Shown piece after piece: positions 8,961 to 44,279 of a stretch of DNA of 64,000 nt. The notes beneath the pieces are model-generated. The model was not told where the DNA came from. It searched no databases and saw only the letters and a list, made by a program, of their open reading frames with translations. The position numbers and the translations under genes were made by a program. The DNA is taken from the IMG/VR virus record IMGVR_UViG_3300042542_005523. One strand, given 5' to 3'. This stretch comes from a virus (taxonomy: Duplodnaviria; Caudoviricetes). The stretch's first letter is position 1, and each line of letters opens with the position of its first letter.

Positions 8961-11900
8961 ATGGCACAAAAAATTAAAATCGACTATTCACAATTTAGAG
9001 CATCGGGCGTTTACACCCTGGAATTTGACAGTTCCGCTAGTGTTATATTAACGTCTACCACTATAAGATTGGTAGTTGGATTCTCTAACAAGGGCCCATT
9101 CAACACACCGGTTTACATACCGGATGCATCTACAATGATCTCGATTTTTGGTGATATTGATAGATCACTAGAAAATAGAGGATCTTTCTTCCAAAGATCT
9201 ATACTAACCTGCTTGAATGCGGGACCAGTTTTTGCTTTAAATTTATTGAAGCTTAATGATGATTTAGACAGTGCTACTCCTGATGTTGTTGATTACAGAT
9301 CTTATTCTGTTGACACTGAACAATTTAATGGTATTTTAACAAGTAAACTATACTCGTCTTTTTATAACAAAGAGAGATTTTGGTTTGCTTCAACTGAATA
9401 CTTCTTGGCCACATTGAGCTTACTAGATCAAGGAAGATTACTTAACCTTGTTAATCTTGGTCAACAGCCAATGAGTGTTATCATAAGAAAGTCCACTGAC
9501 TCGACAACGCCAATAAAGGGATATAATATCTTCGCTATAGATTGGTATGGTGCTGATAATGTGCCTAGTTTTATGCACCCTTATGATTACATTCAGGATT
9601 ATTTCATTGATGTTATTGCAGTTTCTGGTAGTTGGACTAATTACCCGCAGCTTTCTGTGGATCCTCAATGGAGCCAATATTTTACAGCCAATGGATTTAT
9701 TAAGAGCCAGATGGATAATTTCCTTAATAATCCTAATGTTCAGCTTCTTGTTTATCAAACAGGATGTATTATACCTGATTTTACCGATTTGAATGGAGTT
9801 AATCAGTACATCCAAACGTTGGTTAATAGTGATACTGCTTCAACCGGTTTATTCTGTGCCGTAGACGAAAAGGCATTTGATGATATTTGTAATAATGTTT
9901 ATAGGATAGATCTTGTAGGTAATAACCTTATCGACGAATTAACATCAGATAGAGACCTACTAAGCCCAAGACTTGATTTCTTAAGTTACGATCAAGCTTT
10001 ATTGGCTGATTATTTATACACTGAAGCAAATTACGGAGTTACTGGTGCATCCGGTGCAACTGGTGGTAATATGTACGTTGGCACTTTATTCGATCCGATC
10101 ACATTTGGAGCTACCGGTGGTACAACAGACAAGGGTCTTTACGCAAATACATTCCAGGCTTACGATCCGAATTCATTTGATGGTGGATATCACTATATCA
10201 TTACAGGTACAGGGGGAGCACCTCCTTTAACGACATCTCAGAAATCTTCTCTTAAAACATTCTGTGATATTTCTTCTTCGGCTGATCAGAAATTTATTAT
10301 AGGTAAAGCTACTATACCTGCTGGTGTAACGGGATCTGTTCCTTCAAGTTTCGGAGGTCCAAACACAACCCAACTAGTTAAGCTTAAGATAGCTTTAACT
10401 AAGACTTCTAATTCGGAAGTTAAAATTCTATGGCAACATCCGTTAGATACTGCTTTCTATAGATCTCAAGGTATTACAGTTGAGCCTTGGTCTTACCTGC
10501 AACAAGTTCCTATTGATCCTGATATTGCATTTCTAAATTCCGGTGTTGGTGTATATCAATTTGGATGGGCTGATAGAGTAGGTGAGGAGGCTATACTAAA
10601 CCCAGACGGAGCAGGAGTAACAGGATCAGGATTCCCGAATGGATATTCTAACTCTTTGATAGCGTATTCTATGTCTAACCCTTATATCGATTTCCAATAT
10701 AATGAGACCGCAGATGGCGATATTATTTGGAAAAATTCAGACGGAACTGACATTCAATATCTGGATTACCAAAGCTTGGTTGATGTAGATGGATTTCCTT
10801 ATGTAGCGGTTAGATCTTTTAGTAATACTTCTAGAGACATTACTAGCCTAGAAGATATTGCTGCCTTTGGTGCTTCTTATGCCTCAGATAATGTAGGCCT
10901 CCCAGTTTCTGCAGATAAGCTAGACATCATATCACAAAATGGAAACATAAACGAATACCTTAATGTTATAACTAGGGTAGATGCCACAACGTTTACTATA
11001 GGTTTAGACGCTCTTGGCAACGTTCCTTTAGCAGTGGGTGATTGGATAGTTTCTACTGACCTTAACATATGTTTAGATGATGCGGGGACAAGGCAGTCTA
11101 GATTAGGAAAGATCACTACAGTTTCTGCTACAACAACTAGCGGTGTCTATAGAGTAACTTGTGCTAGACCAGTACTTTATTACTCAGGAACACCCCTAAG
11201 AGTTCAGAAGTTCACATCGATTGAGGATTTCACTACATCTTTTGATTTCACATACTTCCAAGGTTTCACTATGACCGAAAGGCATAGACCAAATGGAACT
11301 GATGCTAGACTAACTGAGATACTAGATGTACTTTACAATACAGATCTTGCTATAGCGCTTGCTAATAAGGACGCTATAACTTACAGATACATTATTGATA
11401 CATTCGGTGGACAAATACTTCCTAATTCTAAGTATCAATTGAGTAAGTTGGCGATGATGAGACAGCAATCTCTTGCTATCATCAATGCGCCTTCTACTGC
11501 TCAATTCCAGGCTTCTACAGATCCTAGATTTACTGATGCACCTACAGCTACTAATCCTAAGCCTCTGTTAAACACTGCTTATATAGCTTCCGGAGGTAAT
11601 CTATCCTTGAATCCTACATATACATTCAGTCTTCCTTCCGAAGCTGATGGAGCTAAATTCTGTGCATTCTACTCACCTTACATCACTATAAGGGAGTCAA
11701 ACAGAAACGTAAACGTTCCACCGGCAGCTTTAGTTTCTAATAATTTCATTAGAAAATTTGCGACAGGTGAGCCTTATGCAATAGTAGCAGGCCAAAAAAG
11801 AGGGGTTCTTTCAGGACAAACTATAGTAGGTGTTGAATATGATTATAGTGATGCAGACAGAGGAAATTTAGAGCCATTCGGGATAAATCCTATCATCAGA

Positions 11901-12302
11901 AGAAAAGGGATTGGTGTAGTTATATTCGGTAACGGAACTGCTTATCAACAAGTTAACTCTGCATTCAGCCTTGTTCACGTTAGAGATTTGCTCATCAGCA
12001 TTGAAACTGACACCAATCAAATTCTTTCTAACTATCTGTTTGACTTCAACGAGGATTCAATCAGACTTGAAATTAAGACTTTGGTTGATAATTACTTAGA
12101 CGGAGTAAGAGCAGGAGGTGGTATTTATGCTTATAAGACCATCATGGATGCTACTAACAATACACCAGCGATCATTGATATGAACATGGGGGTTATTGAC
12201 ATCATCATCGAGCCTGCAAGAGGTATACAGAAATTCATAAACAGAATCACTGTAACTAGAACAGGCGGTATAGCTGCTGGCGGATTCATACAGTTTGTAT
12301 AA
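8961..12302 (+). CDS. gp18: Tail sheath protein (gp18-like), enlarged
   Basis: N-terminal SGVYTLEFD, VVGFSNKGPFNTPV; C-terminal VPPAALV, GINPI, VRDLLISIE, LFDFNE, IIIEPARGIQKF. Confidence 0.93.
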   Translation: MAQKIKIDYSQFRASGVYTLEFDSSASVILTSTTIRLVVGFSNKGPFNTPVYIPDASTMISIFGDIDRSLENRGSFFQRSILTCLNAGPVFALNLLKLNDDLDSATPDVVDYRSYSVDTEQFNGILTSKLYSSFYNKERFWFASTEYFLATLSLLDQGRLLNLVNLGQQPMSVIIRKSTDSTTPIKGYNIFAIDWYGADNVPSFMHPYDYIQDYFIDVIAVSGSWTNYPQLSVDPQWSQYFTANGFIKSQMDNFLNNPNVQLLVYQTGCIIPDFTDLNGVNQYIQTLVNSDTASTGLFCAVDEKAFDDICNNVYRIDLVGNNLIDELTSDRDLLSPRLDFLSYDQALLADYLYTEANYGVTGASGATGGNMYVGTLFDPITFGATGGTTDKGLYANTFQAYDPNSFDGGYHYIITGTGGAPPLTTSQKSSLKTFCDISSSADQKFIIGKATIPAGVTGSVPSSFGGPNTTQLVKLKIALTKTSNSEVKILWQHPLDTAFYRSQGITVEPWSYLQQVPIDPDIAFLNSGVGVYQFGWADRVGEEAILNPDGAGVTGSGFPNGYSNSLIAYSMSNPYIDFQYNETADGDIIWKNSDGTDIQYLDYQSLVDVDGFPYVAVRSFSNTSRDITSLEDIAAFGASYASDNVGLPVSADKLDIISQNGNINEYLNVITRVDATTFTIGLDALGNVPLAVGDWIVSTDLNICLDDAGTRQSRLGKITTVSATTTSGVYRVTCARPVLYYSGTPLRVQKFTSIEDFTTSFDFTYFQGFTMTERHRPNGTDARLTEILDVLYNTDLAIALANKDAITYRYIIDTFGGQILPNSKYQLSKLAMMRQQSLAIINAPSTAQFQASTDPRFTDAPTATNPKPLLNTAYIASGGNLSLNPTYTFSLPSEADGAKFCAFYSPYITIRESNRNVNVPPAALVSNNFIRKFATGEPYAIVAGQKRGVLSGQTIVGVEYDYSDADRGNLEPFGINPIIRRKGIGVVIFGNGTAYQQVNSAFSLVHVRDLLISIETDTNQILSNYLFDFNEDSIRLEIKTLVDNYLDGVRAGGGIYAYKTIMDATNNTPAIIDMNMGVIDIIIEPARGIQKFINRITVTRTGGIAAGGFIQFV

Positions 12303-14910: not shown

Positions 14911-16368
14911 ATGTCATCTACCGAAAGTGAAAAACAGTTCATTGACCTATCGAGAAGTTTAGAGGGTCTCGTTGGTGAATTGAAAAAAATGAACATATCG
15001 TCTATCAAGGACGATATTAAGAAACAGGGTGATGTTATAGAGAGATCACTGGGTAACGTAAAGGGTAGCTTTAGAAGAGGCGGTAAAACTAAGGATGATG
15101 GAAACTATTTAGTTGGTGAGAATGGACCAGAAGTGGTTTCGCTTCCTACCGGATCCTCAATAATACCTTTAGATGTTTCAGATTTAATAGAGGGATTAAA
15201 AAACGTTTCGCAACTCAAAGGTGATCTTGATGATAAGATTTTAAACTATGACAAATCTAATAATGTTGTAGTTACGCCAACGGGTGATTACGATATTGGT
15301 TTTATAAAAAAACAACTCGAAAAGCAAATAGCTGAGGATGCTGCTATGGATGTTTCTGATGGTGGTAAAAGTGCAGAAGCTGTAGTTGCTCTTGAAAAAT
15401 TACAGGATAAGATAAAAAATGCTAAACCTGAAAGCAAAGAGGGAAGCATGGATGAAAAAATTGCTAAATCAGCGGGCCCGAGTGCAGAGGAAATAAAAGC
15501 GGAGAGAGAAAGATTATTAGCAGAAGACTATGAATTCTATACCGAATACCCTAAAAGCCTACAGGATGATCTAGATTCTTATATAAGTAGCTACAATTCT
15601 GGACCTGGCTCTTCCCTTAATAAAACTGCGGAACCAGCATTATCGGAGAAGGAAAAGCCTAATTCTAAAGAGGAAAGAGAGGGAAAGGAAAAGGATAATT
15701 CAAAAGAGGAAAGCACAGAGAAGACCTCAAAAAAGAAAAATAAAAAAGAAAAAAAAGAAAAAGAGGGGACTGGAGAAGGTCTATTTTCTAAAGGAAAGTC
15801 AACCGAGCGTAAGGAAAACGCAAAGAGTAGTGCTATAGGTATGGGTCTTTCTATTCTGGAAAAAAAATCAGGACTAACAGATAAAGCTGTTAACTTGGGA
15901 TCCAAATTTGGTATATCAGGGGATAAAACTGAAAAGTTAATCGGCACTGCTAAACAGAAAGCTGTAAGTAAAGTTCAGGATTTGGGTAAAAAATCACCCA
16001 AGGAAAATGAAGATAAGGAAGATACCAAAAGCAAAGCAGTAAACGAGAAGCCTGAATTAAATCCACCGCCTAAGCCAGCGCCACCACCCGAGCCCAAGCC
16101 GGCTCCAACCGCAGCCCCTGCCCCGGAGAAGAGCAAATCAGCAAACCCGGAGGCTAGCTCAAAATCAGAAACTACTGAGACAGCTAGCAAATCAGGGACA
16201 GCTGAGCCCGCGTCTAGTGGAGCTTCTAGTTCTTCCTCTGGTGCATCTCTGTCTAATGAGGATGCTAAAGACATTAAAAGCCTTCTTAGTAAGATAGCAA
16301 ATACACTAGCTGGACCACTAAATATTAGTTCACCTGATCCTTTTAGACCAGATTCTAGAAGAATTTAA
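14911..16368 (+). CDS. Tape-measure-like/tail protein, Lys- and Pro-rich
   Basis: GGKTKDDGNYLVGENGPEVV..PTGSSIIP motif seen in tape-measure proteins; position after chaperone genes; low complexity. Confidence 0.45.
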   Translation: MSSTESEKQFIDLSRSLEGLVGELKKMNISSIKDDIKKQGDVIERSLGNVKGSFRRGGKTKDDGNYLVGENGPEVVSLPTGSSIIPLDVSDLIEGLKNVSQLKGDLDDKILNYDKSNNVVVTPTGDYDIGFIKKQLEKQIAEDAAMDVSDGGKSAEAVVALEKLQDKIKNAKPESKEGSMDEKIAKSAGPSAEEIKAERERLLAEDYEFYTEYPKSLQDDLDSYISSYNSGPGSSLNKTAEPALSEKEKPNSKEEREGKEKDNSKEESTEKTSKKKNKKEKKEKEGTGEGLFSKGKSTERKENAKSSAIGMGLSILEKKSGLTDKAVNLGSKFGISGDKTEKLIGTAKQKAVSKVQDLGKKSPKENEDKEDTKSKAVNEKPELNPPPKPAPPPEPKPAPTAAPAPEKSKSANPEASSKSETTETASKSGTAEPASSGASSSSSGASLSNEDAKDIKSLLSKIANTLAGPLNISSPDPFRPDSRRI

Positions 16369-24688: not shown

Positions 24689-24724
24689 ATCCCCTGTTTC
24701 TAATAAGAATGGGGGATTTTTTTT
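24689..24724 (+). terminator. Probable intrinsic terminator
   Basis: ATCCCC...GGGGAT stem followed by T8; lies after the -1 frame stop. Confidence 0.55.
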
Positions 24725-24745: not shown

Positions 24746-25105
24746 ATGGCAAAAGTTTATGTTAAAAACAGTGAGCTCCTTAGAGCCGTATCCGAATCTA
24801 AAGAGAAGGGTCAGCTAACAAGAGAGACAATCGATATGTTTACCCTCATGATAGAAGGTATTTCTAAGAAGATGGCTTACAAGGATCCTGACGATAAGGA
24901 CGATTGTATGGCTTTTGCCATGGAGGATCTTTGCAAATATTGGAATAGATTTGACCCTGCTAAATCTAACAATCCATTTGCCTACTTCACTCAGGTTGCA
25001 AAGAATGGATTTGCTAAGGGATGGAAGAAATTACACCCGCCAAAGAATCCTAAAACTATACCCTTCAGTTATATAACAGGGGAGGATAATAGTTACAACG
25101 TTTAA
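24746..25105 (+). CDS. gp55: T4 gp55-like late sigma factor (short)
   Basis: YVKNSELL, DDCMAFAMEDLCKYWNRFDPAKSNNPFAYFTQVAKN. Confidence 0.8.
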   Translation: MAKVYVKNSELLRAVSESKEKGQLTRETIDMFTLMIEGISKKMAYKDPDDKDDCMAFAMEDLCKYWNRFDPAKSNNPFAYFTQVAKNGFAKGWKKLHPPKNPKTIPFSYITGEDNSYNV

Positions 25106-25106
25106 T

Positions 25107-25592
25107 ATGTCCATAAAAAAGGTTAAACCTAACGGAAAACACAAACATGGGCTTTATAGTCCACAGAATCCCGATAAGTACATAGGTGATATACATAATA
25201 TCATTTATAGATCTTCGTGGGAGCAGAGATTCTGTGCATATTGCGATAGAAACGAAAGGATAGTTAAATGGAGCTCTGAACCTCTTTTTATAGATTACTG
25301 GAATCCATTAGATAAGAAAATGCACAAATACTATGTGGATTTTTACATAAAGACTCTAAAAGAAGACGACACCTATCAGGAGTGGATAATAGAGGTTAAG
25401 CCAGAGTCACAAACTCAAAAGCCGATATACGAGGGTAAAAATATGACTCTTAAAAAACTAGAGAGCTATAACTATAATATGAAAATATGGATAACAAATC
25501 AGGCAAAATTTAAAGCTGCTAAAGAATGGGCTATCCAAAGAGGTTTTAGATTTGGCGTAGTTGACGAGAAATTTCTTTTTAATAGTAAATGA
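25107..25592 (+). CDS. gp4: Head completion nuclease (T4 gp4-like, TnsA-like fold)
   Basis: IYRSSWEQRFC.YCD, KWSSE, KYYVDF, IEVKP, NQAKFKAAKEW. Confidence 0.85.
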   Translation: MSIKKVKPNGKHKHGLYSPQNPDKYIGDIHNIIYRSSWEQRFCAYCDRNERIVKWSSEPLFIDYWNPLDKKMHKYYVDFYIKTLKEDDTYQEWIIEVKPESQTQKPIYEGKNMTLKKLESYNYNMKIWITNQAKFKAAKEWAIQRGFRFGVVDEKFLFNSK

Positions 25593-26233
25593 GCTTTTCT
25601 GAAAAAATAAAATCATACAAGGACGGATTCATATCCCAATCTGAGACTGTTTCTAAAACTGACGAGTATTTTATAAGCTCCTATATAAAGTTATCGAACA
25701 GGGATTTTCGACCTGAAAAGTTCGACGGCCAATTTCTTCCCGGTAAGATCTATATTTTTAGATATAATCCTAAGCAGAAACCCGATGACGGTAAAAAAAA
25801 GGAGAAGGAGTTCATAAACAGACTACCGATAGTTTTAGCTTTTGATGTTAAGAAATCAAAAGATCTAAACAACATCCTATATGGATCGGATTTAATAGCT
25901 ACCCCACCTGATGAAAGAGTTAAGATATTGGAGAGGGTCTATGATTTTTCAGAGAGCATAATAGATTCTAATAAAAAATCGGGAAGCCAATCTCCCGTGA
26001 ACCTAAGTGGTGATAATGTAAAGTCTTTATTGAAAGGTACTGGGTATATTGGAAGCACTAAAGGATTCGATATTTCATCAATGTCTGAAGTCTATGTTAT
26101 AGGCTATGATGATTGGAAAAAAATACCATATCTTAGTGTAGCCCTTCTTCAAGGGTCTTCTCCGATTGAGATATATAATTCCTATAGATCGAAATTAAAA
26201 GATAATTCTGGTCTAGAAAATAAAAATAAGTAG
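25589..26233 (+). CDS. DNA end protector-like protein (T4 gp2-like)
   Basis: PGKIYIFRYNPK, RLPIVL; follows gp4 as in T4-like genomes. Confidence 0.55.
   Translation: MSFSEKIKSYKDGFISQSETVSKTDEYFISSYIKLSNRDFRPEKFDGQFLPGKIYIFRYNPKQKPDDGKKKEKEFINRLPIVLAFDVKKSKDLNNILYGSDLIATPPDERVKILERVYDFSESIIDSNKKSGSQSPVNLSGDNVKSLLKGTGYIGSTKGFDISSMSEVYVIGYDDWKKIPYLSVALLQGSSPIEIYNSYRSKLKDNSGLENKNK
26170..26178 (+). promoter_or_regulatory. Candidate late promoter GATATATAA for portal genes (within end of upstream CDS)
   Basis: Motif match about 59 nt upstream of ATG 26237. Confidence 0.4.
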
Positions 26234-26236
26234 TGA

Positions 26237-27811
26237 ATGGCTGGTTTTATAGATAACGAAAATGGTAATCCGGTATTTCAGAGGATTAGGGAATCTGTTA
26301 AGTCGATCTCTAAGTTCGGTATGAAATACGAGGACATGGTGATTAAGAACTCCATGGCTGTTGGCGCTACTGAAGCTGCTTTCATTAATCAGAACAAAAC
26401 AAACGTTCCTGATGAGAATATGATGTATAGTCTTGCGAAGCAAGATACTATGGTCAAACAGTATATCTCTTATTTCGACAAGGATTATAAGGGAAAGAGG
26501 GATTATCTTAGGAAATTCTCTCTTAACCCAGAGATAGAAGGAGTTCTTGATATTGTTTGTGACGAATCCATAAACTACGACCCTTCTAATTATTACGCAT
26601 ATCCCGATTTTCTAGATATAACTACTCTAAAAGAAAAAACAAGAGAAAAGGTTTATGACGTTTTTAGAAAAATATATGACATCTGGGGATTTAGCGATGA
26701 TATAACAGCATGGCAATTCTTTAGACAATTCATGGTGGACGGATTCCTTGCATTTGAAATAATCTGGGACAATAGGGGGAAAGAGATAATTGGATTTAAA
26801 GAATTGGACGCTACTTCTTTAATACCTAGCGTAGAAAAACAACCAGACGGAAGACATGTCAACGTTTGGATACAATTTCCGAATGACCCTAAAAAGACAA
26901 GAATGCTATATGACTCCCAGATCATATACATGTCTTATGCTAAGGGAAATTCAGTTTCCAGATTAAGTTATGTTGAGAGATTAATTAGACCTTATAATAC
27001 CCTAAGAATTATAGAATACACTAGGGTAATTTGGTCAGTGATGAATGCTTCATTCAAGCTTAAAATGACCGTTCCTGTTGGATCAAGATCACCTCAGAAA
27101 GCTATGCAGACCTTGGGTGAACTTATGAGTATCTATAAGGAGGATATTAGCTTGAGCGATGATACTGGTGAATTGCTAGTTGACGGAGCACCTAAGATAC
27201 AATTCTATAAGAATTATCTGATACCACAGGGCCAAAACGGTCAACCTACAATTGAGCCCTTGACAATGGAGGGACCGAACTTAAATGATCCTGCCCCTCT
27301 TGCATATTTCTACGATAGATTCATAGAGGAATCTAAAATACCTGCTACAAGATTTAAGGGGTTAGATGGATCTTCTAGTGCAACATATTCCAACACTGCG
27401 GATGGCCTGGACAAGGAAGAGGTAAGATTTAGTAAGTTCATAAGTAGATTGAGAACCAATTTTCAGGATATCATTATAAAGCCACTTTGGTTACAAATAT
27501 GTAAAGACAATCCGGAATTAGAAAAAGATCTAGTTTTTAAGAGCCAGCTTGGACTTAAGTACATCAGTGAGAACCCTTTTAGGGTAAACCAGGAGATGGA
27601 ATTGATCACCAAGAGAAAAGAAAGCGTAGATTCGCTAGCTCTTATAATGGAAGACGACGATAAACCTTATTTTTCGCAGACTTACTTAATTGAGAATTTT
27701 CTCGGACTTACACCTGCAGACATTAAAGCTAACAAGATAGCAAAAGAAAAGAATGCCAAGAAGAAAGAGAAGGAAGGCGGGGAGGAAGAAGCACCAGAAG
27801 TTACTTTATAA
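26237..27811 (+). CDS. gp20: Portal protein (gp20-like), copy 1
   Basis: PEIEGVLDIVCDESI, FRQFMVDG, LSYVERLIRPYNTLR, FYKNYLIP, EEVRFSKFISRLR. Confidence 0.88.
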   Translation: MAGFIDNENGNPVFQRIRESVKSISKFGMKYEDMVIKNSMAVGATEAAFINQNKTNVPDENMMYSLAKQDTMVKQYISYFDKDYKGKRDYLRKFSLNPEIEGVLDIVCDESINYDPSNYYAYPDFLDITTLKEKTREKVYDVFRKIYDIWGFSDDITAWQFFRQFMVDGFLAFEIIWDNRGKEIIGFKELDATSLIPSVEKQPDGRHVNVWIQFPNDPKKTRMLYDSQIIYMSYAKGNSVSRLSYVERLIRPYNTLRIIEYTRVIWSVMNASFKLKMTVPVGSRSPQKAMQTLGELMSIYKEDISLSDDTGELLVDGAPKIQFYKNYLIPQGQNGQPTIEPLTMEGPNLNDPAPLAYFYDRFIEESKIPATRFKGLDGSSSATYSNTADGLDKEEVRFSKFISRLRTNFQDIIIKPLWLQICKDNPELEKDLVFKSQLGLKYISENPFRVNQEMELITKRKESVDSLALIMEDDDKPYFSQTYLIENFLGLTPADIKANKIAKEKNAKKKEKEGGEEEAPEVTL

Positions 27812-27825
27812 ATAAAAAAATAGAA

Positions 27826-29475
27826 ATGGCAGGATTTATAGATCCCATACAACCAAATAGTGCATTCGGAACGATACTGAGAAGTCTTTCTCAGATATCT
27901 AGGTTTGGTATGAAGTACGAGGATATGGTTGTTAGGAATTCACAGGCCATAGGTAAAACCGAATCTGAATTCTTCAATGAGCAGGGAACAGGATTTACAG
28001 AAAGTGATGCTTTTTATTGGACGGTTTCTCATTCTGATACGAAGGTAAGAAAGTACATAGCTTATTTTGATAAGGATTACATAGACAAAAGAAACTTTCT
28101 TAGGAAGTTTTCGCTAAACGGTGAGATTGAGTTTATACTCGATACGGTAACTGATGAAGCTGTGGTTTACGACGAGAAGAATTATTTTGCATATCCTGAG
28201 ATCAAGAATTTGGACGTAAGCGATAAGGTAAAAGATAAACTGATGGAGAATTTTTACCGGATCTATCATCTTTTCAATTTTCAGGAAAGTATATTAGCTT
28301 GGCAGGTATTTAGGCAGCTCCTAATTGATGGGTTTCTAGCTTATGAGATAATCTACGATAGCAGAGGCAAGCAAGTCATTGGATTTAAAGAACTCGATGC
28401 AACATCACTTCAGCCTATGGTTGAAAAAGTTGGCGAAAATGATTTTCAGCAGGTTTGGGTTCAGTATCCAAAGAATCCCCAGATGACAAGAAAGCTTAAG
28501 AATGAGCAGGTTATCTACATATCATATGCTAAAGGTAATTCAATTTCCAGGGTAAGTTATGTTGAGAGATTAGTTAGATCCTATAACATCCTGAAAATAA
28601 TGGAGAACAGTAGGATTATATGGAATGTCATGAACGCTTCATATAGATTGAAGTTTGTTATACCTATAGGTACACAGTCACCACAAAAGGCCATGCAAAC
28701 GCTAGGACAAATAATGTCTTATCATAAAGAGGAGATATCTATAAACGACAATTCAGGGGAATTGACTGTTAACGGAAGACCAAAAATTCAGTTCTATAAA
28801 AACTATCTTTTCCCTGAGAAGGATGGTGTTTCCCCTACCATAGAAACACTAAATGCAGCTGGACCTGATTTTAATATCATGGACAACGTGCTTTACTTCT
28901 TCAATAAACTAAAGCAAGATTCTAAAATACCGTATGCGAGATTTGCTTATAGAGGTGGAACACCTGCAAACAACCAAATTAGCATTGATTCTTTAGAAAG
29001 AGATGAGATAAGGTTCGAGAAGTTTCTTTCCAGATTGAGATCGATTTATCAGGAAATCATAGTTAAGCCTCTTTATATACAAATGTGTCTTGATTATCCT
29101 GAGCTTGTAAAAGATAGAAGCTTTAAAACTAATCTTGGAATTAATTTCGTAAGGGAAAGCGAATTCAACGATCTGGTTGAACTTGCTAATCTAGTTAAAA
29201 GAGGGGATTTTATAAAATCTCTTGCTGACATGAAAGTTAAAGTTGGTGAAGAAGAGCAGCCTTATTTTGATAAAGATTTCCTTGTTCAGAGATTTTTAGG
29301 TCTAACACCGGAGCAGATAGAGGGCAATGCTTCATACAAAGAGCTCGAAGCTAAATCTGCTAAAAAGGAAAGCTCTACTAGCGGAGCTGAGGGCGAGGCA
29401 GCTCCAGCGGAAGAAGAAGCGGCAGCTCCAGCGGAAGAAGAAGCGGCAGCACCCGCTGAGGAAAAGACTGCATAG
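27826..29475 (+). CDS. gp20: Portal protein (gp20-like), copy 2
   Basis: GEIEFILDTVTDEAV, FRQLLIDG, VSYVERLVRSYNILK, FYKNYLFP, DEIRFEKFLSRLR. Confidence 0.88.
   Translation: MAGFIDPIQPNSAFGTILRSLSQISRFGMKYEDMVVRNSQAIGKTESEFFNEQGTGFTESDAFYWTVSHSDTKVRKYIAYFDKDYIDKRNFLRKFSLNGEIEFILDTVTDEAVVYDEKNYFAYPEIKNLDVSDKVKDKLMENFYRIYHLFNFQESILAWQVFRQLLIDGFLAYEIIYDSRGKQVIGFKELDATSLQPMVEKVGENDFQQVWVQYPKNPQMTRKLKNEQVIYISYAKGNSISRVSYVERLVRSYNILKIMENSRIIWNVMNASYRLKFVIPIGTQSPQKAMQTLGQIMSYHKEEISINDNSGELTVNGRPKIQFYKNYLFPEKDGVSPTIETLNAAGPDFNIMDNVLYFFNKLKQDSKIPYARFAYRGGTPANNQISIDSLERDEIRFEKFLSRLRSIYQEIIVKPLYIQMCLDYPELVKDRSFKTNLGINFVRESEFNDLVELANLVKRGDFIKSLADMKVKVGEEEQPYFDKDFLVQRFLGLTPEQIEGNASYKELEAKSAKKESSTSGAEGEAAPAEEEAAAPAEEEAAAPAEEKTA
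29398..29460 (+). repeat. 24-bp tandem repeat in portal-2 tail (AAPAEEEA x2 plus degenerate copy)
   Basis: GCAGCTCCAGCGGAAGAAGAAGCG at 29398 and 29422 exact, third copy degenerate. Confidence 0.9.
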
Positions 29476-29520: not shown

Positions 29521-29548
29521 AAACCGTCGGAATACCTACGGTTTTTTT
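29521..29548 (+). terminator. Intrinsic terminator after portals
   Basis: AAACCGTcGG-aata-CCtACGGTTT plus T run. Confidence 0.75.
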
Positions 29549-29551
29549 ATT

Positions 29552-29559
29552 TATATTTG
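29552..29559 (+). promoter_or_regulatory. Bacteroidota-type -7 promoter element TATATTTG
   Basis: TAnnTTTG 24 nt upstream of ligase ATG, just after a terminator. Confidence 0.55.
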
Positions 29560-29582
29560 TATTATAACTAAATAGAAGTAAA

Positions 29583-30905
29583 ATGATTAAAGAACTAAGA
29601 ATCTTAAAGGAATTAGAGGAACTTACTGGAGAGGGATCACAGAAGAAAAAGCAGGAGATAATCAAACAAAATTGGACCTCTGAATTAGCTTACGTTTTTG
29701 ACGTGTGCTTCAATCCATTTGTTACTACCAAGCTACATAAGCTTAATTTTTCAGAGGATCCGAGCGATTCTTTTGGACTGGATAACTTCAAAGAGCTCGT
29801 TGAAAAATTAAAATCAGCTCCTGCAGCTAATAATTCTATAAGGTTAGAAGCTAATCAGATGGTAAACACCAGAATTACCGATGATAGTGACGACGCTGAC
29901 CTTAGAAAGATTCTAATGAAGGTGCTAACCAAGAGAATGAACGTTGGCGTTGGTGCGAAGCTGATCAACAAGGCTATTGGTAGAGAGGTGATACCTGATC
30001 CATCCGTTATGTTAGCAACCGACGACCAAGATTCGCTTCTAAGCTGGGATAAGATCTATTGTGAGGAAAAGTATGATGGCGTAAGAGTAATAGCTATTTA
30101 TAAGGAAGGTGGATTTAGTTACTTTACCAGAGCTTTTAATGAACTTGATGCAGATAAGCTGCACAAGATTACATTTTCTCTTAAACAGATAATGAACTTT
30201 TCAGGATTGAAAGGCTCTTGGTTCTTTGATGGTGAATTAACAGATCACAATAGGAAATCAGTAAGTGGTAAGGTTACGCAGATACTAAAGGGGACTGCCC
30301 CTGACAATATTGGGGACAGTATTATATTTAATGTATTTGATCTTGAAGAATATGATACGCTAAGAGCCGGTGTAGGTATCATACCTTACTCAGTAAGAAG
30401 ACAGACGCTAGAATCTGTTATGAAAAACGTCGAAGAGAGTGAGCCAGTGAAATTAGCTACAATGCGGGAACTTGAAGATCCCTCTCAGATTGCTTCGGTA
30501 TACCAAAAAATAGTGGATGCAGGGGGAGAGGGAGTTATATGCAAGAATGATCATCTGTACGAATGTAAAAGATCAAAAAGCTGGGTGAAATTCAAGGAGG
30601 TTAACGAATGTGATCTTGTCATCCGTGGATGGTACGCAGGAGAGGGTAAAAGGGAGGGCTTCATAGGTGGACTTGTATGCACGGACCTATCTGAAACCTT
30701 GCATGTTAAAATAGGATCAGGTTTTACCGACGAGGACCTTAAATCATTGAGTGCTAACCCAGATGCCCTTCGAGGGAAGATATGTGCTGTGCAATACAAC
30801 GTTACAATTACTGACAAGTTTGATAATAGATCACTATTTTTGCCTAGATTCGTAGAGATAAGAAACGATAAGTCAGAGGCTGATGATTTATCATCCAAAT
30901 TTTGA
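29583..30905 (+). CDS. gp30: ATP-dependent DNA ligase
   Basis: Motif I EEKYDGVR, III FDGEL, IIIa FNVFD, IV GEGVICK, V WVKFK, OB-fold VKIGSGFTD, LFLPRF. Confidence 0.95.
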   Translation: MIKELRILKELEELTGEGSQKKKQEIIKQNWTSELAYVFDVCFNPFVTTKLHKLNFSEDPSDSFGLDNFKELVEKLKSAPAANNSIRLEANQMVNTRITDDSDDADLRKILMKVLTKRMNVGVGAKLINKAIGREVIPDPSVMLATDDQDSLLSWDKIYCEEKYDGVRVIAIYKEGGFSYFTRAFNELDADKLHKITFSLKQIMNFSGLKGSWFFDGELTDHNRKSVSGKVTQILKGTAPDNIGDSIIFNVFDLEEYDTLRAGVGIIPYSVRRQTLESVMKNVEESEPVKLATMRELEDPSQIASVYQKIVDAGGEGVICKNDHLYECKRSKSWVKFKEVNECDLVIRGWYAGEGKREGFIGGLVCTDLSETLHVKIGSGFTDEDLKSLSANPDALRGKICAVQYNVTITDKFDNRSLFLPRFVEIRNDKSEADDLSSKF

Positions 30906-34308: not shown

Positions 34309-34860
34309 ATGAGGAAAGAGCATTCAAAACTTATCGATAAAGTTATATCCAGTTTAGATTGGGATTCTATTTTTGAGGTCTATAAGGCATTCAAAATGGG
34401 AATAGGCGAGGGTAGCAACGTTATACCTGGCATTAAAAGAAAACCTTTTAGCGATTCTCTTACCAAGAATGACATAAAGGGAGAGCTTAAGACTATACTA
34501 AAACAGGTAATAGACGGAGATATATCCGACATAACATACGGTCCTTGGATCATAAACTGGGACAATGGCGACTGGGAGCCTGTTGAGGATGAGATGGACG
34601 AGGATATCGATGACCAGGAGGAGGAAAATATTGAAGATCCTAATATAGTAAATTCAAGGCTTGAGGTTATCTATGCACCTCAACGAATAGCCCTTATAAT
34701 TAACTCATTAAAGGATGAACAACCCGAGGGAGAACTCAATGACTCTTATTTAATAGAGAGCTTGATGCAGAAAGCTATTAAGAATGAGGATTATGAACTA
34801 GCTTCTAAATTCAGGGACATTTTGAAGCATCAGGATAAAGAACAAAGTTCTGATATATAG
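34309..34860 (+). CDS. Hypothetical protein with C-terminal UvrB/C (UVR) motif
   Basis: KAIKNEDYELASKFRDIL; acidic central linker. Confidence 0.6.
   Translation: MRKEHSKLIDKVISSLDWDSIFEVYKAFKMGIGEGSNVIPGIKRKPFSDSLTKNDIKGELKTILKQVIDGDISDITYGPWIINWDNGDWEPVEDEMDEDIDDQEEENIEDPNIVNSRLEVIYAPQRIALIINSLKDEQPEGELNDSYLIESLMQKAIKNEDYELASKFRDILKHQDKEQSSDI
34852..34860 (+). promoter_or_regulatory. Late-type promoter GATATATAG overlapping TAG stop
   Basis: Exact motif ending 3 nt before GTG 34864. Confidence 0.5.
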
Positions 34861-40486: not shown

Positions 40487-42517
40487 ATGAAATATTCTGA
40501 TACAATAAACGAAAATTATGTCTTCATCCTGGAGAAGCAAGATTTTATTCTTGAATCCAAGAAGACTAATAGTGATGACTATGTTCTAGAAGGCATTGCT
40601 GCTGTATTCCAAAAGGAGAACAACAACAATAGAATCTATACTGAGGGGGATTATCTTCCGCATCTTAGCTATTTGAAGGATAAGATTGCACAAAAAAGAC
40701 TAGTTGGTGAATTAGATCATCCGGAAAAATTTGACGTCTCTCTAAAGAATATTTCTCACATTATAACGGATCTTAATTACGATAAGGATAATAAGACAAT
40801 CAGGATAAAAGTTAAATTACTTGACACCCCAGCAGGACAAATTGCTAAGAAATTAGTAGATGCTGGAGTTCCTATCTCTATTTCATCAAGAGCAGCTGGT
40901 AATGTTGGTCCGGATAAGAAGGTAGAGATCAAGAAGATATTCACATATGATCTTGTTGCCGATCCTGGATTTCAAGACGCTCAATTAGAGAGAGTTTATG
41001 AAAGCGCAGGATTCACCCAATCTGATATTAAGAACTTTACTGATAAATATTCAGTCACATCTGGTCTAGAGTGTATCAATGAAAGTTTCGGTATTAAAAA
41101 TAATTCCAGTGTGAAGATATATAAAGTTGAAAATAACGAGGAATTCGATAAATTGATCAACAATAAAGAAAAAAACAAAAAAGCCCTTATGGAGAAGAAT
41201 AATGAATTTGTAACAGCAGAAGAGCTCAATCAGTATTCCGTTTTCTTGAAAAACGAGATGGATTCGATGAAAATTGCTATGGATACAATTAAGGAACAAA
41301 AGTCGAATATTGACGAGTCTCAAGGAGGAAACACTTCTGAATATTGCAGAATCCTTGAGGGAAGAATTGAGAAACTTGAAAAGTATTCCGATTATATAGC
41401 AGAGAATTTAGAAAATTCTGTTAAATATGGTGAATATCTAGCTGAGAATCTTGACAATTCTATTTCATATTCTAAGTATTTAGCTGAAAACCTTGATAAG
41501 TCTATTGCTTATTCTAAGTATTTAGCTGAGAATGTTGATAAAGGAATTTCTTATACAGAATATATTGCTGAAAATGTTGATAGTTCTATTGAGTATTCTA
41601 AATATATTGCTGAAAAGCTTGATCAGAACATTCAATATTCAGAATATCTAGCTGAAAGCGTAGAAAAGAATATTGACTATTCTGAATACCTTGCAGAAAA
41701 CATAGACGATAATATTCAATATGCTGAATATGTAGCTGAGAATTTAGATAAAGGAATTTCTTATTCTGAATACGTAGCAGAAAATGTTTCTAATAACATT
41801 AGCTATTCTGAATATATAGGAGAGAATTTAAACAAGTCTATCACATATAGCGAGTATCTAGCAGAAAGCTTGAATAAGACTATCGACGTAACGGAAAAAA
41901 TTAATGAAAAGGTTAAAACCAACATTAGTTATTCTGAGTATATCGCAGAATCTTTAAATGATGAGTTTGGTAACAAGAACCAAGCACAAGCTCTTAAAGA
42001 GTCTATAAGCTTCACAACAAGAACATCAGCTGAAACTACAGGTTTTGCTGGAAGCTACGATGACTTAAGTTCTAAAATTGACAATTTAATTGAGAAGGTT
42101 AAAACCCAAAAAACCGAAATCAACGAAGCAGCTAAAACTGCATATACACCTGCCGAAACACAAAAGGCGACATCACTACTTACCGAATCTTTGAATGACG
42201 AGAAAGTGTTTAACACCGGAATTAAATTCATTGACGAAATGCCAACTGAGTATGCTCAGGTATGGGAATCACTTAACGAAGGATACAAGCAATCTATTGT
42301 TGCTCAGTCTAACTTCTATAAGCTAGATACACCTTACCAAATCAGAAATTTCTGGTCTACCCGTCAATTAGGCGTTTCTCCTATTGGACTTCAAAAATTA
42401 GACGAGAGTGAAAACACATCCGATGAAAGAAATCAAGCTCAAAATCCAGGTTACAGCAATGCTTACATGGATATGATCGCTAGATCTCTAGAATCAAGAT
42501 TTCAAACAAACAAATAA
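40487..42517 (+). CDS. gp21: Prohead protease (gp21-like) fused to scaffold/core region
   Basis: LEGIAAVF..NNNNRIY, VGELDHP, LLDTPAG, ISISSRAAG, TYDLVADPGF; long coiled-coil C-half. Confidence 0.9.
   Translation: MKYSDTINENYVFILEKQDFILESKKTNSDDYVLEGIAAVFQKENNNNRIYTEGDYLPHLSYLKDKIAQKRLVGELDHPEKFDVSLKNISHIITDLNYDKDNKTIRIKVKLLDTPAGQIAKKLVDAGVPISISSRAAGNVGPDKKVEIKKIFTYDLVADPGFQDAQLERVYESAGFTQSDIKNFTDKYSVTSGLECINESFGIKNNSSVKIYKVENNEEFDKLINNKEKNKKALMEKNNEFVTAEELNQYSVFLKNEMDSMKIAMDTIKEQKSNIDESQGGNTSEYCRILEGRIEKLEKYSDYIAENLENSVKYGEYLAENLDNSISYSKYLAENLDKSIAYSKYLAENVDKGISYTEYIAENVDSSIEYSKYIAEKLDQNIQYSEYLAESVEKNIDYSEYLAENIDDNIQYAEYVAENLDKGISYSEYVAENVSNNISYSEYIGENLNKSITYSEYLAESLNKTIDVTEKINEKVKTNISYSEYIAESLNDEFGNKNQAQALKESISFTTRTSAETTGFAGSYDDLSSKIDNLIEKVKTQKTEINEAAKTAYTPAETQKATSLLTESLNDEKVFNTGIKFIDEMPTEYAQVWESLNEGYKQSIVAQSNFYKLDTPYQIRNFWSTRQLGVSPIGLQKLDESENTSDERNQAQNPGYSNAYMDMIARSLESRFQTNK
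41384..41965 (+). repeat. 42-bp/14-aa coding tandem repeat (YSEYLAENLDKSIS consensus), about 14 units
   Basis: 12 consecutive clear units, one degenerate, one final unit. Confidence 0.9.
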
Positions 42518-42533
42518 AAAATAATTTCTAATC

Positions 42534-44279
42534 ATGAAACTAATTAATGAACAAGAAATCTATGATACCTGGTCGCCTCTAATTGAGAGCAAAGCTGGTA
42601 TCACTGATTCAAACAAAAAATCGTGGTTGACTAAGTATTGTCACTACCACTCATTGAACGAATCTGCCGGTGCTTATAACACTCTAGGTGTAGTAAACGG
42701 TATGGGTAACGTAGCGCCTCCTGCATACCCAGGAATGTCTTCATTCGCTGGTTCTAACGCAGGTGGAAACAACTTCGGTGCTAACCAAGGATTCTACAAT
42801 GCTTCTAACAACGGATCTGGTGACAAATTCCCATCTCTTCTTCCATTGGCTATCCAAGTGGCTGCTAAGACTGTTGGATTTGATATCGTTCCTGTTATTC
42901 CAATGTCTGGACCAACTGGTATTTTGTCTTACCTAGACTACGTATACGCTGGTGGTAAACTTGCTGGTGCTACAGCTTCTGGATCTAATGCTGCTGCTGA
43001 AGACCTAGCTGATGCTCCAACAATGATCAAGTTCCCAGTTTATCAGTCAACTGCTGGTACTGGTACTACTGGTGCTACTGCTGGTACATTTGACGTTGGT
43101 ACTGAATATACTGTAACTAATGGTGGCGGTGCTTTGACTTTGATCTTCGTTGGTCTATCAAGAATCGATGGTTTCCCAATCTTTAGAATTTCTGCTATCA
43201 CTGGTGGTTATAACGTTGCTTCTATTATCAACGGTACTCCTGTTAACGTGGTAACTAGCGGTTTCTATACCGGTACATCTGCAAATGGTGGTAACTTCAC
43301 TGCACAATTGGTTAAAGCTCTTGAAGATCACATCCAAGGTTTCTCTGGTGCTGGTTTCAACAACAACCAGGACTGGCAAGGTCCTTACGTTGATGGTACT
43401 AAGACTTACAACCCAATGTTGAGAGGAGTAGCTGAATCTACTTACTACAACTCAATGGGTCTAAGCACCTTCACTAAGTTCGTAGAAGCTGAAACTTTCC
43501 AAGTAGCTGCTTCTGTAACTACGGAGCAAATCCAAGATTTGAACAAGCAATTTGGTATTGACGTTATCTCTATGATCGAGAATGCACTTGTTAACGAGGT
43601 TTCTCAAGCTATTAACAAGCACATCCTTTCTAGAGCATTTGCACTAGGTTGGTCTAACCACACCCAGTTCAATAACGTTCAAAATCAAAACTTGAACTTG
43701 AACTTGATCCTTGGTGGTGGAACTGGTACAACTAGCGCTTACATCAATAAATCTGATGCTAACGTGACTATGCCAATCCCAGCTGGTCCATCTACTTCAA
43801 GCTACGAGAACTTGTCAACTTTACAAAGAAGACTGTACTCTAGAATTCTAGCTGCTGCTAACGTGGTTGCTAACCAAGGTAGAAGAGGTCCTGCTAACTT
43901 CCTTGTAACTAACGCTGCTATCGCTTCTGCGTTACAAGATATTAGCCAGTTCACTTTCGCTCCGTTCACAAACACTCTAACTCAAAACAACGGTACTCTT
44001 TACCCAGTTGGTTCTCTAGCTGGTATGACCGTTTACGTAGATCAGAACATGAACTACAACGACACTAGAGTTTGTGTTGGTAGAAAAGGTGGTGACGATG
44101 AGCCAGGTTTGAAATTCATGCCTTACATGATGGCTGAGTCTATCCAAACCATCTCTGAAGGTACAATGTCTCCGAAGATCGCAGTTAAGTCTAGATACGC
44201 TCTAGTTGAGGCTGGTATGCTTCCAGAGACCCTGTATTTCACTTTCTTCGTACAGCTTCCAGCTGGTGGAATCGTTTAA
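42534..44279 (+). CDS. gp23: Major capsid protein (gp23-like)
   Basis: LPLAIQVAAKTVGFDIVPV.PMSGPTG, QDLNKQFGID, EVSQAINK, GRRGPANF, FMPY, KSRYAL; strongly biased codon usage. Confidence 0.95.
   Translation: MKLINEQEIYDTWSPLIESKAGITDSNKKSWLTKYCHYHSLNESAGAYNTLGVVNGMGNVAPPAYPGMSSFAGSNAGGNNFGANQGFYNASNNGSGDKFPSLLPLAIQVAAKTVGFDIVPVIPMSGPTGILSYLDYVYAGGKLAGATASGSNAAAEDLADAPTMIKFPVYQSTAGTGTTGATAGTFDVGTEYTVTNGGGALTLIFVGLSRIDGFPIFRISAITGGYNVASIINGTPVNVVTSGFYTGTSANGGNFTAQLVKALEDHIQGFSGAGFNNNQDWQGPYVDGTKTYNPMLRGVAESTYYNSMGLSTFTKFVEAETFQVAASVTTEQIQDLNKQFGIDVISMIENALVNEVSQAINKHILSRAFALGWSNHTQFNNVQNQNLNLNLILGGGTGTTSAYINKSDANVTMPIPAGPSTSSYENLSTLQRRLYSRILAAANVVANQGRRGPANFLVTNAAIASALQDISQFTFAPFTNTLTQNNGTLYPVGSLAGMTVYVDQNMNYNDTRVCVGRKGGDDEPGLKFMPYMMAESIQTISEGTMSPKIAVKSRYALVEAGMLPETLYFTFFVQLPAGGIV

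Follow-up and report, generated by a model that had tools for sequence, protein, structure and literature searches.

The window analysed here is a 64,000-nucleotide stretch of a tailed-phage genome (Duplodnaviria; Caudoviricetes; IMG/VR record IMGVR_UViG_3300042542_005523). It carries two adjacent genes, designated A and B, which are the last two members of a tightly packed five-gene block and encode portal proteins of the T4 gp20 type (Table 1). Both products matched the Pfam profile Portal_T4 (PF07230) over nearly its whole length, A at profile positions 7-427 of 433 (E 2e-56, 192 bits) and B at positions 6-427 of 433 (E 3.6e-64, 217 bits), with scores far above the curated cut-off of 22.9 bits, and both matched PHROG 213 (portal protein). 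AlphaFold2 models of the two proteins (pLDDT 72 and 74) displayed the same order of secondary-structure elements and the complete portal fold, consisting of a wing, two stem helices, a clip built from beta-strands and a helix, a tunnel loop, a bent helix and a crown. For each model, the top 13 Foldseek matches were chains of T4 gp20, and these best PDB matches had E-values from 1e-18 to 5e-21 and TM-scores by target of at most 0.72. Among 97 sites conserved in single-copy relatives, 90 were retained by A and 91 by B (~93%). Furthermore, neither protein lacks the clip helix or the crown, and the tunnel loop has its normal length in both. An alignment of A with B over 521 residues showed 50% identity and 71% similarity with only 10 gap positions. 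The initial annotation had described two full-length gp20-type portal ORFs in tandem, which keep gp20 features from end to end and are clearly diverged; the exact coordinates, the near-complete profile matches of both products and the identity of only 50% bear this description out.

Table 1. Coordinates of the portal gene pair, its neighbours and the associated transcription signals in the window.
Feature	Position	Strand	Evidence or properties
Intrinsic-terminator-like hairpin closing the preceding unit, directly ahead of the five-gene block	24689..24717	+	11-pair stem, then T-run
Gene for a gp55-like late sigma factor; opens the tightly packed block	24746..25105	+	PHROG 234, E 2.7e-15
gp4-type head completion (head closure) gene	25107..25592	+	PHROG 218, E 2.4e-45
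gp2-type DNA-end protector gene; promoter-like motif of the portal pair in its 3′ end	25589..26233	+	PHROG 429, E 9e-8
Late-promoter-like motif GATATATAA, 59 nt 5′ of the portal A start codon	26170..26178	+	
Portal paralog A, gp20-type, 524 aa, complete	26237..27811	+	Pfam, PHROG, AlphaFold2, Foldseek
A/B spacer, 14 nt, A-rich; without promoter motif, without terminator	27812..27825	+	
Portal paralog B, gp20-type, 549 aa, complete; acidic Ala/Pro/Glu-rich C-terminal tail	27826..29475	+	Pfam, PHROG, AlphaFold2, Foldseek
Terminator-like hairpin and U-run after portal B	29521..29548	+	-9.5 kcal/mol, z -2.5 vs shuffles

The gene at the position equivalent to gp2 is annotated in relatives as PF26869 (Phage_T4_gp2). 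The window contains 14 GATATATAR sites, each of them on the + strand, compared with 3.2 expected occurrences; a count of 14 was reached in none of 100 shuffled sequences. After the motif preceding the portal pair, the next copy of GATATATAA downstream does not appear before position 34852. A corresponding arrangement was observed in 56 unique relatives, 52 of which contained ATATATAR within 150 nt upstream of A and none upstream of B, and the spacer between the two genes measured -1 to 23 nt in relatives. A terminator scan detected no + strand terminator between 24746 and 29475. The hairpin following B, which the scan missed due to a loop longer than its limit, probably marks the end of the late transcript. 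One metatranscriptome yielded contigs on gp2, A and B, for which carry-over of DNA is possible; all were short and none spanned the A|B junction. Co-transcription of A and B is plausible, and with one promoter motif and a short spacer the two proteins would therefore appear together, at the same time and in the same cell.

The phages harboring the pair belong to a widespread and globally distributed clade of uncultured giant freshwater phages. Two deep subclades contributed 160 related IMG/VR loci; A was followed by B in 160/160, with both ORFs intact throughout, as well as in all five complete genomes of the clade (270-430 kb). Each complete genome contains only one large MCP gene, one prohead protease gene and one full-length terminase gene (TerL), and therefore no second capsid system. 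The TerL count was obtained by protein search; the Pfam profile PF17289 gave zero matches and hence was uninformative. Among deposited phages, 2111 records gave a gp20-type hit, and none of them contained two full-length portal copies. Independent portal duplications were likewise absent from the four metagenomic lineages whose portal could be read in context (P0122, P0134, P0146 and P0156) and from five whole huge-phage records; the contig of a further lineage, P0123, stops at the portal stop codon. Literature searches retrieved no description of a phage with two portal paralogs. Two candidate precedents were discarded, the "Portal vertex proteins" of PMC9723584 being a matter of wording and the poxvirus "heterododecamer" consisting of unrelated proteins.

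In a phylogenetic tree, the first-position genes formed one clade (99%) and the second-position genes another (97%). A and B together formed a joint clade (99%), outside of which all single-copy relatives were placed; these comprise eight relatives including Lak megaphages and LR7565xx huge phages. The topology indicates one duplication that is older than the two deep subclades, and the diverged copies appear to have stayed adjacent ever since. The stem branches following the duplication were nearly symmetric (0.47 and 0.41). In subclade 1, omega amounted to 0.020 for A and 0.013 for B, and in subclade 2 to 0.018 and 0.030, respectively, indicative of strong and about equal purifying selection on both copies. 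As neither copy has been lost and both are under purifying selection, A and B each appear to be indispensable.

A pseudogene or decaying copy is excluded by the intact ORFs at all loci and by omega values of 0.013-0.030. A recent duplication or an assembly artefact is excluded by the 50% identity, by the occurrence in 160 loci and by contigs from three runs, each of a different study and without a recorded library type, that bridge the A|B junction. This agrees with the initial annotation, in which both a pseudogene and a recent duplication had been dismissed: the pair was present in 160/160 loci and 5/5 genomes, and the duplication predates the subclades. Relaxed selection in one copy, named there as a refuting observation, was seen in neither, and the phylogeny of both copies across relatives, which had been proposed as a check, revealed a single ancient duplication with the one-copy relatives outside.

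Sequence differentiation between A and B appears modest. Only five sites are universally fixed for different residues in the two proteins, and most of the exchanges are conservative (D/E, L/V, Q/K). Four of the five are situated along the channel, where the fixed differences map to the inner loop of the clip, to stem helix alpha7 and to the tunnel-loop base. The tunnel loop displayed the largest excess of ortholog over paralog identity (0.13), and across the subclades orthologs were only ~4 points more alike than paralogs. A-B identity was 0.503 within a genome versus 0.500 between genomes, which rules out gene conversion between the copies and shows that the A and B of one genome have changed in parallel only minimally. 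A strong ancient differentiation of alpha7 and the tunnel loop was considered on the basis of 28 fixed differences in one subclade; it was downgraded because only five of them remained with the second subclade included and because this region evolves fast between orthologs, too. The clip helix SPQK-x-MQTLG is kept in both copies and aligns with the terminase-contact residues N291-K296 of T4 gp20 (PMC4493910). In the T4 portal, tunnel loops touch neighbouring tunnel loops and affect the stoichiometry of the ring (PMC4493910); residue-level contacts between T4 gp20 subunits are not listed in its structure paper or supplement.

The retention of the pair suggests that the DNA-entry ring of these phages may be composed of two distinct proteins, where a single one is usual. 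The explanation that we favor, at a probability of roughly 45%, is that A and B form one mixed dodecameric ring at the single portal vertex, perhaps with the subunits ordered as A6B6. According to this model, a single portal gene would have been duplicated to give the ancient paralogs A and B, whose products would be made together from one late transcript and would co-assemble into one ring, converting a homomeric ring into a two-subunit ring. Both subunits would have retained the surfaces that meet shared partners, namely the wing, which faces the capsid, and the clip helix, which faces terminase and neck, and the few fixed differences would have been placed at the channel-lining elements named above. 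Each copy would thereby have become indispensable, and neither would therefore ever have been lost. Co-expressed paralogs of a self-assembling homomer cross-assemble by default. The presence of one promoter motif and one capsid system, the invariant clip helix, equal constraint and the absence of loss lean towards co-assembly in one ring. The completeness of both portals, the position of four of the five universally fixed differences along the channel and the identity excess of the tunnel loop likewise speak for a mixed ring. The sequences show the duplication and its age, the universal retention in a fixed order, the equal and strong constraint, the shared promoter motif and the single set of capsid, protease and terminase genes, whereas co-assembly, and likewise any stoichiometry or subunit order, is inferred. 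To our knowledge, there is no heteromeric portal in any tailed phage, and because of this the prior for a mixed ring is low. The weak differentiation of A and B and their minimal parallel change within genomes speak against it as well, and the RNA evidence is confined to the short contigs of one metatranscriptome. A natural A-B fusion was not found among proteins of 918-2620 aa, a result of little weight. The strictest form of the mixed ring, an obligate and ordered A6B6 hetero-dodecamer in which channel loops of two kinds alternate and the symmetry is six-fold rather than twelve-fold, is rather doubtful. The initial annotation had named an alternating 6+6 hetero-dodecamer as one possibility, besides two portals with separate roles or vertices, and had noted that its C6 symmetry would match the neck. 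This match does not go beyond analogy, because the 12-to-6 step of T4 is situated outside the portal, where the dodecamer of gp13 meets the hexamer of gp14 (PMC12929587).

A and B might instead assemble into separate homododecamers, both essential and with different jobs, for example one serving as prohead nucleator and packaging portal and the other as a second ring stacked in the neck or core or located elsewhere. Two complete and equally constrained copies would fit two independent essential rings, co-variation of A and B within genomes is nearly absent, and only homomeric portal rings are known, such as that of T4 (PMC4493910). However, the complete genomes encode a single MCP, a single protease and a single full-length TerL, the partner-facing clip helix is identical in A and B, and five universally fixed differences are little for two distinct roles. 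Moreover, self-sorting would need to have evolved between two products of one transcript whose interfaces are nearly identical, and no sign of it was observed. Separate rings are an unlikely arrangement, albeit one to be taken seriously. A division of labor in which one copy is the structural portal and the other a portal-shaped accessory outside the virion, acting as an assembly chaperone or template or as a packaging regulator, is improbable. Both copies maintain ~93% of the ancestral conserved residues together with clip helix, tunnel loop and crown, and they evolve at symmetric rates; after neofunctionalisation, one of the two copies would usually evolve fast. Such an accessory would nevertheless be compatible with the few fixed A/B differences, and T4-type portals need help for assembly by the gp40 chaperone (mentioned in PMC7824862), a role that a paralog could fill.

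If A and B were redundant or alternative isoforms, maintained for dosage, for robustness, for different hosts or conditions or for blunting host defences that recognise portals, loss of one copy would be expected in some lineages, but none of the 160 loci lacks either. As twelve portal subunits suffice per virion, dosage is an unlikely driver, and one promoter motif for both genes leaves them without separate regulation. Redundancy would be consistent with the high similarity of A and B in every functional region. Avs-type bacterial defences reportedly detect the portal and terminase proteins of phages, which would speak for a part in evasion; however, a decoy that keeps the fold would remain recognisable to a fold-sensing defence. 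Only a slim chance is left to this explanation.

Tailed phages and herpesviruses share the portal as their hallmark single-copy gene, and all present models of how capsids nucleate, DNA is packaged and the genome is gated centre on the homododecameric portal ring. The clade described here would either break the rule of one protein in a twelve-fold portal or put the portal fold to a second essential use. An A6B6 ring, if true, would be the first portal made from two gene products, and a mixed ring would be a clear example from nature of how a homomeric machine of a virus turned into one with two subunits. Pipelines using the portal as a single-copy marker will count phages of the A/B clade twice.

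Comparison with T4 gp20 (PF07230; PDB 3JA7, 6UZC, 9MKB, 9LU6/9LU7) revealed a match to the family profile from end to end, the same layout of wing, stem, clip, tunnel loop and crown, and the best structural matches, at a sequence identity of A and B to T4 gp20 of only about 16-20%. The genomic context resembles a T4-type late module, since A and B adjoin gp4 and gp2 homologs. In contrast to T4 and the 2111 deposited gp20-type records, which have one full-length copy and a homododecamer, every member of the A/B clade breaks the usual rule of one portal gene per genome and carries two diverged full-length copies in tandem. The nearest portal sequences (33-48% identity) are those of single-portal huge-phage relatives. 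The uncultured phages LR756500, LR756501, LR756502 and LR756504 (462-735 kb), the Lak megaphage Lak-B5 and the metagenomic lineages P0122, P0134, P0146 and P0156 encode such near portals but possess a single full-length gene each, and at least P0122 shares the local order of sigma factor, gp4, gp2, portal and clamp loader genes, with a single portal. The major capsid protein gp23 and the vertex protein gp24 of T4 are paralogs within the same particle and thus provide a precedent from a T4-type head for a duplicated structural gene with both copies at defined positions. The two differ from the portal pair in that they occupy hexamer and pentamer positions of a lattice, whereas A and B would share one twelve-fold ring, an arrangement undescribed so far. 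Rings that became heteromeric by gene duplication include the fungal V-ATPase proteolipid ring, eukaryotic CCT and the proteasome. Although these are unrelated to portals, for which we infer co-assembly, they would parallel the proposed portal ring in that the gene of a homomeric assembly was duplicated and both copies were kept and became indispensable with little change in function.

The presence of two tandem portal genes in the window, A and its downstream copy B, is correct and far beyond chance. Both open reading frames, starting from the first ATG, matched the Pfam Portal_T4 profile over nearly its full length (A, E 2e-56; B, E 3.6e-64) as well as PHROG 213 (portal protein), and the two proteins share 50% identity and 71% similarity across 521 residues with only ten gap positions. 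AlphaFold2 models calculated from 64-sequence alignments (pLDDT 72 for A and 74 for B) displayed an identical order of helices and strands, and the T4 gp20 chains of 9MKB, 9LU7, 6UZC and 3JA7 were the top PDB matches of both (E 1e-18 to 5e-21). Profile and fold thus make A and B members of the gp20 portal family, from which the pair departs in one tested feature, copy number. The initial annotation had placed two full-length tandem portals of 524 and 549 aa at 26237-29475; these coordinates proved exact, and profile, PHROG and fold agree. In relatives, both paralogs (e.g. at loci L010, L020, L056, L074 and L082) carry low-complexity charged C-terminal tails, frequently capped by a short hydrophobic motif (VTL, FTL or ITL); both copies of L020 end in KPPQVTL. 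The C-termini in the window are EVTL (A) and EKTA (B). An acidic tail followed by a terminal aromatic or hydrophobic residue is also found in T4 gp20 and single-copy relatives, and the tail motif may act inside the head as a docking peptide.

Positions of genes and sequence elements in the window and in related records
Record	Feature	Position	Strand	Remarks
Window	GATATATAR sites	3710, 8923, 21827, 21857, 26170, 34852, 37018	+	
Window	GATATATAR sites, continued	37756, 40453, 41116, 44378, 50895, 53040, 55053	+	
Window	large terminase	7054-8898		
Window	tail sheath	8961-12302		
Window	terminator-like hairpin	24689-24717		upstream of five-gene block
Window	gp55-like late sigma factor	24746-25105	+	first gene of block
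Window	strain variant in run X4	25090-25165		sigma/gp4 junction
Window	gp4-type head completion protein	25107-25592	+	second gene of block
Window	gp2-type DNA-end protector	25589-26233	+	third gene of block
Window	portal A	26237-27811	+	524 aa, ORF
Window	portal B	27826-29475	+	549 aa, ORF
Window	hairpin and U-run	29521-29548		after portal B; -9.5 kcal/mol, z -2.5
Window	strain divergence in runs X2-X4	29543-29576		intergenic
Window	ATP-dependent DNA ligase	29583-30905		
Window	prohead protease	40487-42517		
Window	major capsid protein	42534-44279		
G002	small gp23-profile match	73823-74635		
G002	short terminase-like ORF	173616-174236	-	263 aa
G003	small gp23-profile match	242467-242988		
G004	small gp23-profile match	129580-130146		
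G006	small gp23-profile match	178465-179139		
LR756501.1	portal-like ORF (L093)	15166-15351	-	101 aa
MK250024.1 (Lak-B5)	portal frame (L091)	410632-411927		9 in-frame TAG codons

The portal pair closes a block of five tightly packed genes (late sigma, gp4-type, gp2-type, A and B) and is followed by genes for a DNA ligase and a gp44-type clamp loader. The ligase separates B from the clamp loader, a position at which the single-portal relative L095 has no ligase; its portal is directly followed by the clamp loader. No plus-strand terminator-like hairpin was found between the one before the block and the one after B. All 14 GATATATAR sites of the window are on the coding strand; 3.2 would be expected by chance, and none of 100 shuffles reached 14. 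Most copies are located 20-70 nt 5′ of late structural genes, those preceded including the sheath, the protease, an 864-aa head protein and an Hc2-like gene. The element is probably the late promoter at which the block's gp55-like sigma factor acts. One copy lies 59 nt 5′ of A and the next downstream copy only at 34852. Among 56 unique loci, ATATATAR was present within 150 nt 5′ of A in 52 and 5′ of B in none, and the A-B spacer across relatives measures -1 to 23 nt. Since the motif precedes A only and the spacer is this short, transcription of both genes from a single late promoter is a well-supported prediction, and so is the co-transcription claimed earlier. One freshwater-sediment metatranscriptome contained short contigs on gp2, A and B, for which DNA carry-over is possible, and none of them bridged the A|B junction. 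Contigs from three further runs of three studies (library type unrecorded) span it. A strain variant in the public run X4 has 74 nt at the sigma/gp4 junction swapped for 82 other letters, and strains of runs X2-X4 diverge just past the hairpin behind B.

To trace the pair in IMG/VR, B was used as a query. Wherever the contig reaches, an A-type gene lies immediately 5′ of the B-type gene (80/80 loci); A orthologs are 61-97% identical to A and B orthologs 67-97% to B, whereas A-type and B-type proteins always share 47-52%. A second search with P0124, a deep-branching A-like protein, added 80 loci from a different subclade, each containing two portal ORFs (both complete in 65), A-like first and B-like second, with spacers of 2-11 nt. 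Many loci are near-duplicates, so that unique full pairs number 56 in subclade 1, the one traced with B, and 46 in subclade 2. Each of five complete related genomes, G002-G006 (270-430 kb; CheckV 99-100%; two with terminal repeats), harbors exactly two Portal_T4 genes, in tandem, and one large gp23-type capsid gene, one prohead protease and one full-length TerL. In the window and in G002-G006, the protease domain is confined to the N-terminal ~240 residues of an ORF of 657-676 aa that immediately precedes the capsid gene, suggesting a fusion of the protease with a scaffold or core protein. A small gp23-fold gene (~305 aa ORF), distant from the main capsid gene, occurs in four of the five genomes and may encode a gp24-like vertex protein; no small second gp23-profile match was found in G005. 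The 430-kb genome G002 also contains a second, short terminase-like ORF, which shares 28% identity with the ATPase portion at the N-terminus of the large terminase and is missing from the other four.

Whole-record searches revealed one full-length portal each in the deposited huge phages LR756500, LR756501, LR756502, LR756504 and Lak-B5. The metagenomic lineages P0122, P0134, P0146 and P0156 have one portal each in context, P0122 with the gene order of the window (sigma, gp4, gp2, portal, clamp loader). Among deposited phages, gp20-type matches fell at 2113 places in 2111 records, the two surplus places being a short fragment in both copies of one 735-kb genome. The 101-aa ORF of the 735-kb genome LR756501.1 is located far away from the full-length portal, covers just the final 58 positions of the portal profile and looks like a stray portal fragment. 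The Lak-B5 portal frame stays open only when TAG encodes an amino acid, in line with the recoding of stop codons in Lak megaphages.

The initial annotation had proposed a phylogeny of both copies across relatives as a check. In maximum-likelihood trees, which were quick searches with SH-aLRT support only and a program warning of long outgroup branches, first-position genes formed one clade (SH-aLRT 99) and second-position genes a separate one (97), joined in an A+B clade (99) with every single-copy relative outside. The A and B subtrees showed identical topology, and their post-duplication stems were near-equal (0.47 and 0.41). The simplest history is one tandem duplication before the subclades separated, after which both genes were inherited strictly together and in unchanged order, in agreement with the earlier view that the duplication is not recent.

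Among deposited phages the window has no near DNA match; the nearest deposited portals belong to the uncultured huge phages LR756500-LR756504 (462-735 kb) and to Prevotella Lak megaphages, and relatives in IMG/VR are many. A record near-identical to the window comprises 62 kb at an estimated completeness of 20%, so the full genome probably measures about 300 kb. One homolog carries the label of a Chitinophagia MAG, the RNA-containing run originates in freshwater sediment, and leaders are A-rich without Shine-Dalgarno sequences; the putative host is likely a member of the Bacteroidota.

As dS was saturated in most pairs, pairwise NG86 omega was restricted to unsaturated ones, leaving 18 close pairs in subclade 1 (median 0.020 for A and 0.013 for B) and 44 in subclade 2 (0.018 and 0.030; maximum 0.056). 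Selection is relaxed in neither copy, which bears out the earlier statement that this is no pseudogene. Of the 97 sites whose conservation among single-copy relatives reaches 70% or more, A keeps 90 and B 91. A-B identity within the same genome (0.503) is no higher than between different genomes (0.500), which rules out gene conversion between the copies; parallel change amounts to no more than a trace. T4 gp20, with boundaries from PMC4493910, served as the guide for assigning domains; this assignment is approximate at such identity, and alignments are noisy in loops. Between the subclade 1 consensus sequences of A and B, agreement is highest in stem helix alpha5, wing and clip (0.63-0.75) and lowest in tunnel loop (0.27), alpha7 (0.33) and crown (0.41). 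In this subclade 28 sites carry different fixed residues in A and B, and the stem-clip-tunnel-wing2 core holds 22 of these (odds ratio 6.6, p 1e-5). An ancient channel specialisation read from these sites was corrected by subclade 2: five differences remain fixed in all A versus all B, namely Q75/K76, one in the inner clip loop (N334/G334), one in alpha7 (L355/V355) and two at the tunnel-loop base (D392/E391 and E394/D393). Both copies share 110 invariant sites. Across subclades, ortholog identities of 0.57 and 0.56 compare with 0.52 for paralogs, about four points apart, and whichever sequences are compared, alpha7 and the tunnel loop prove fast-evolving at depth. The largest excess of ortholog over paralog identity (0.13) belongs to the tunnel loop and stems from its conserved base, which reads G-L-D-K/Q-E-E in A and E-R-D-E in B; single-copy portals and T4 resemble B here, unlike A. 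The clip helix SPQK-x-MQTLG is kept in A and B and aligns with T4 gp20 residues N291-K296, which contact the terminase (PMC4493910). Differentiation of the copies is thus real but modest and concentrated along the DNA channel, and surfaces facing shared partners are unchanged.

Paralogs of a self-assembling ring that are present together in one cell cross-assemble unless they have evolved to avoid it. With clip and wing, the regions facing partners, conserved between A and B, there is no hint of such avoidance. A and B, apparently made from one late message, would cross-assemble into one portal ring, in a phage that has a single capsid protein, protease and terminase. We favor this mixed ring, with a probability of roughly 0.45, and find a hypothetical ordered A6B6 arrangement attractive. 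Orthologs have diverged to about 55% identity without loss of either copy; mutual dependence in a mixed ring would explain the lack of reversion to one gene without large functional differences. The main rival, in which A and B each form a homomeric ring with an essential role of its own, would accommodate the equal constraint on A and B and their lack of co-variation, but fits poorly with a single capsid system and so few fixed differences, and we consider it rather unlikely. Ranked below it, one copy being a portal-shaped accessory that is not packaged seems improbable, and redundant or alternative isoforms more improbable still.

The initial annotation had related a C6 ring to the symmetry of the neck. 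In T4 the 12-to-6 transition occurs at the step from gp13 dodecamer to gp14 hexamer (PMC12929587), not at the portal, which makes this match only an analogy. T4 portal-neck complexes 9LU6 and 9LU7 were solved in C6 symmetry, which is no direct precedent for an A6B6 portal. Among the papers searched, none describes two portal paralogs in one phage. The two nearest analogies to the A/B pair are the T4 capsid paralogs gp23 and gp24 and cellular rings that turned heteromeric after gene duplication.
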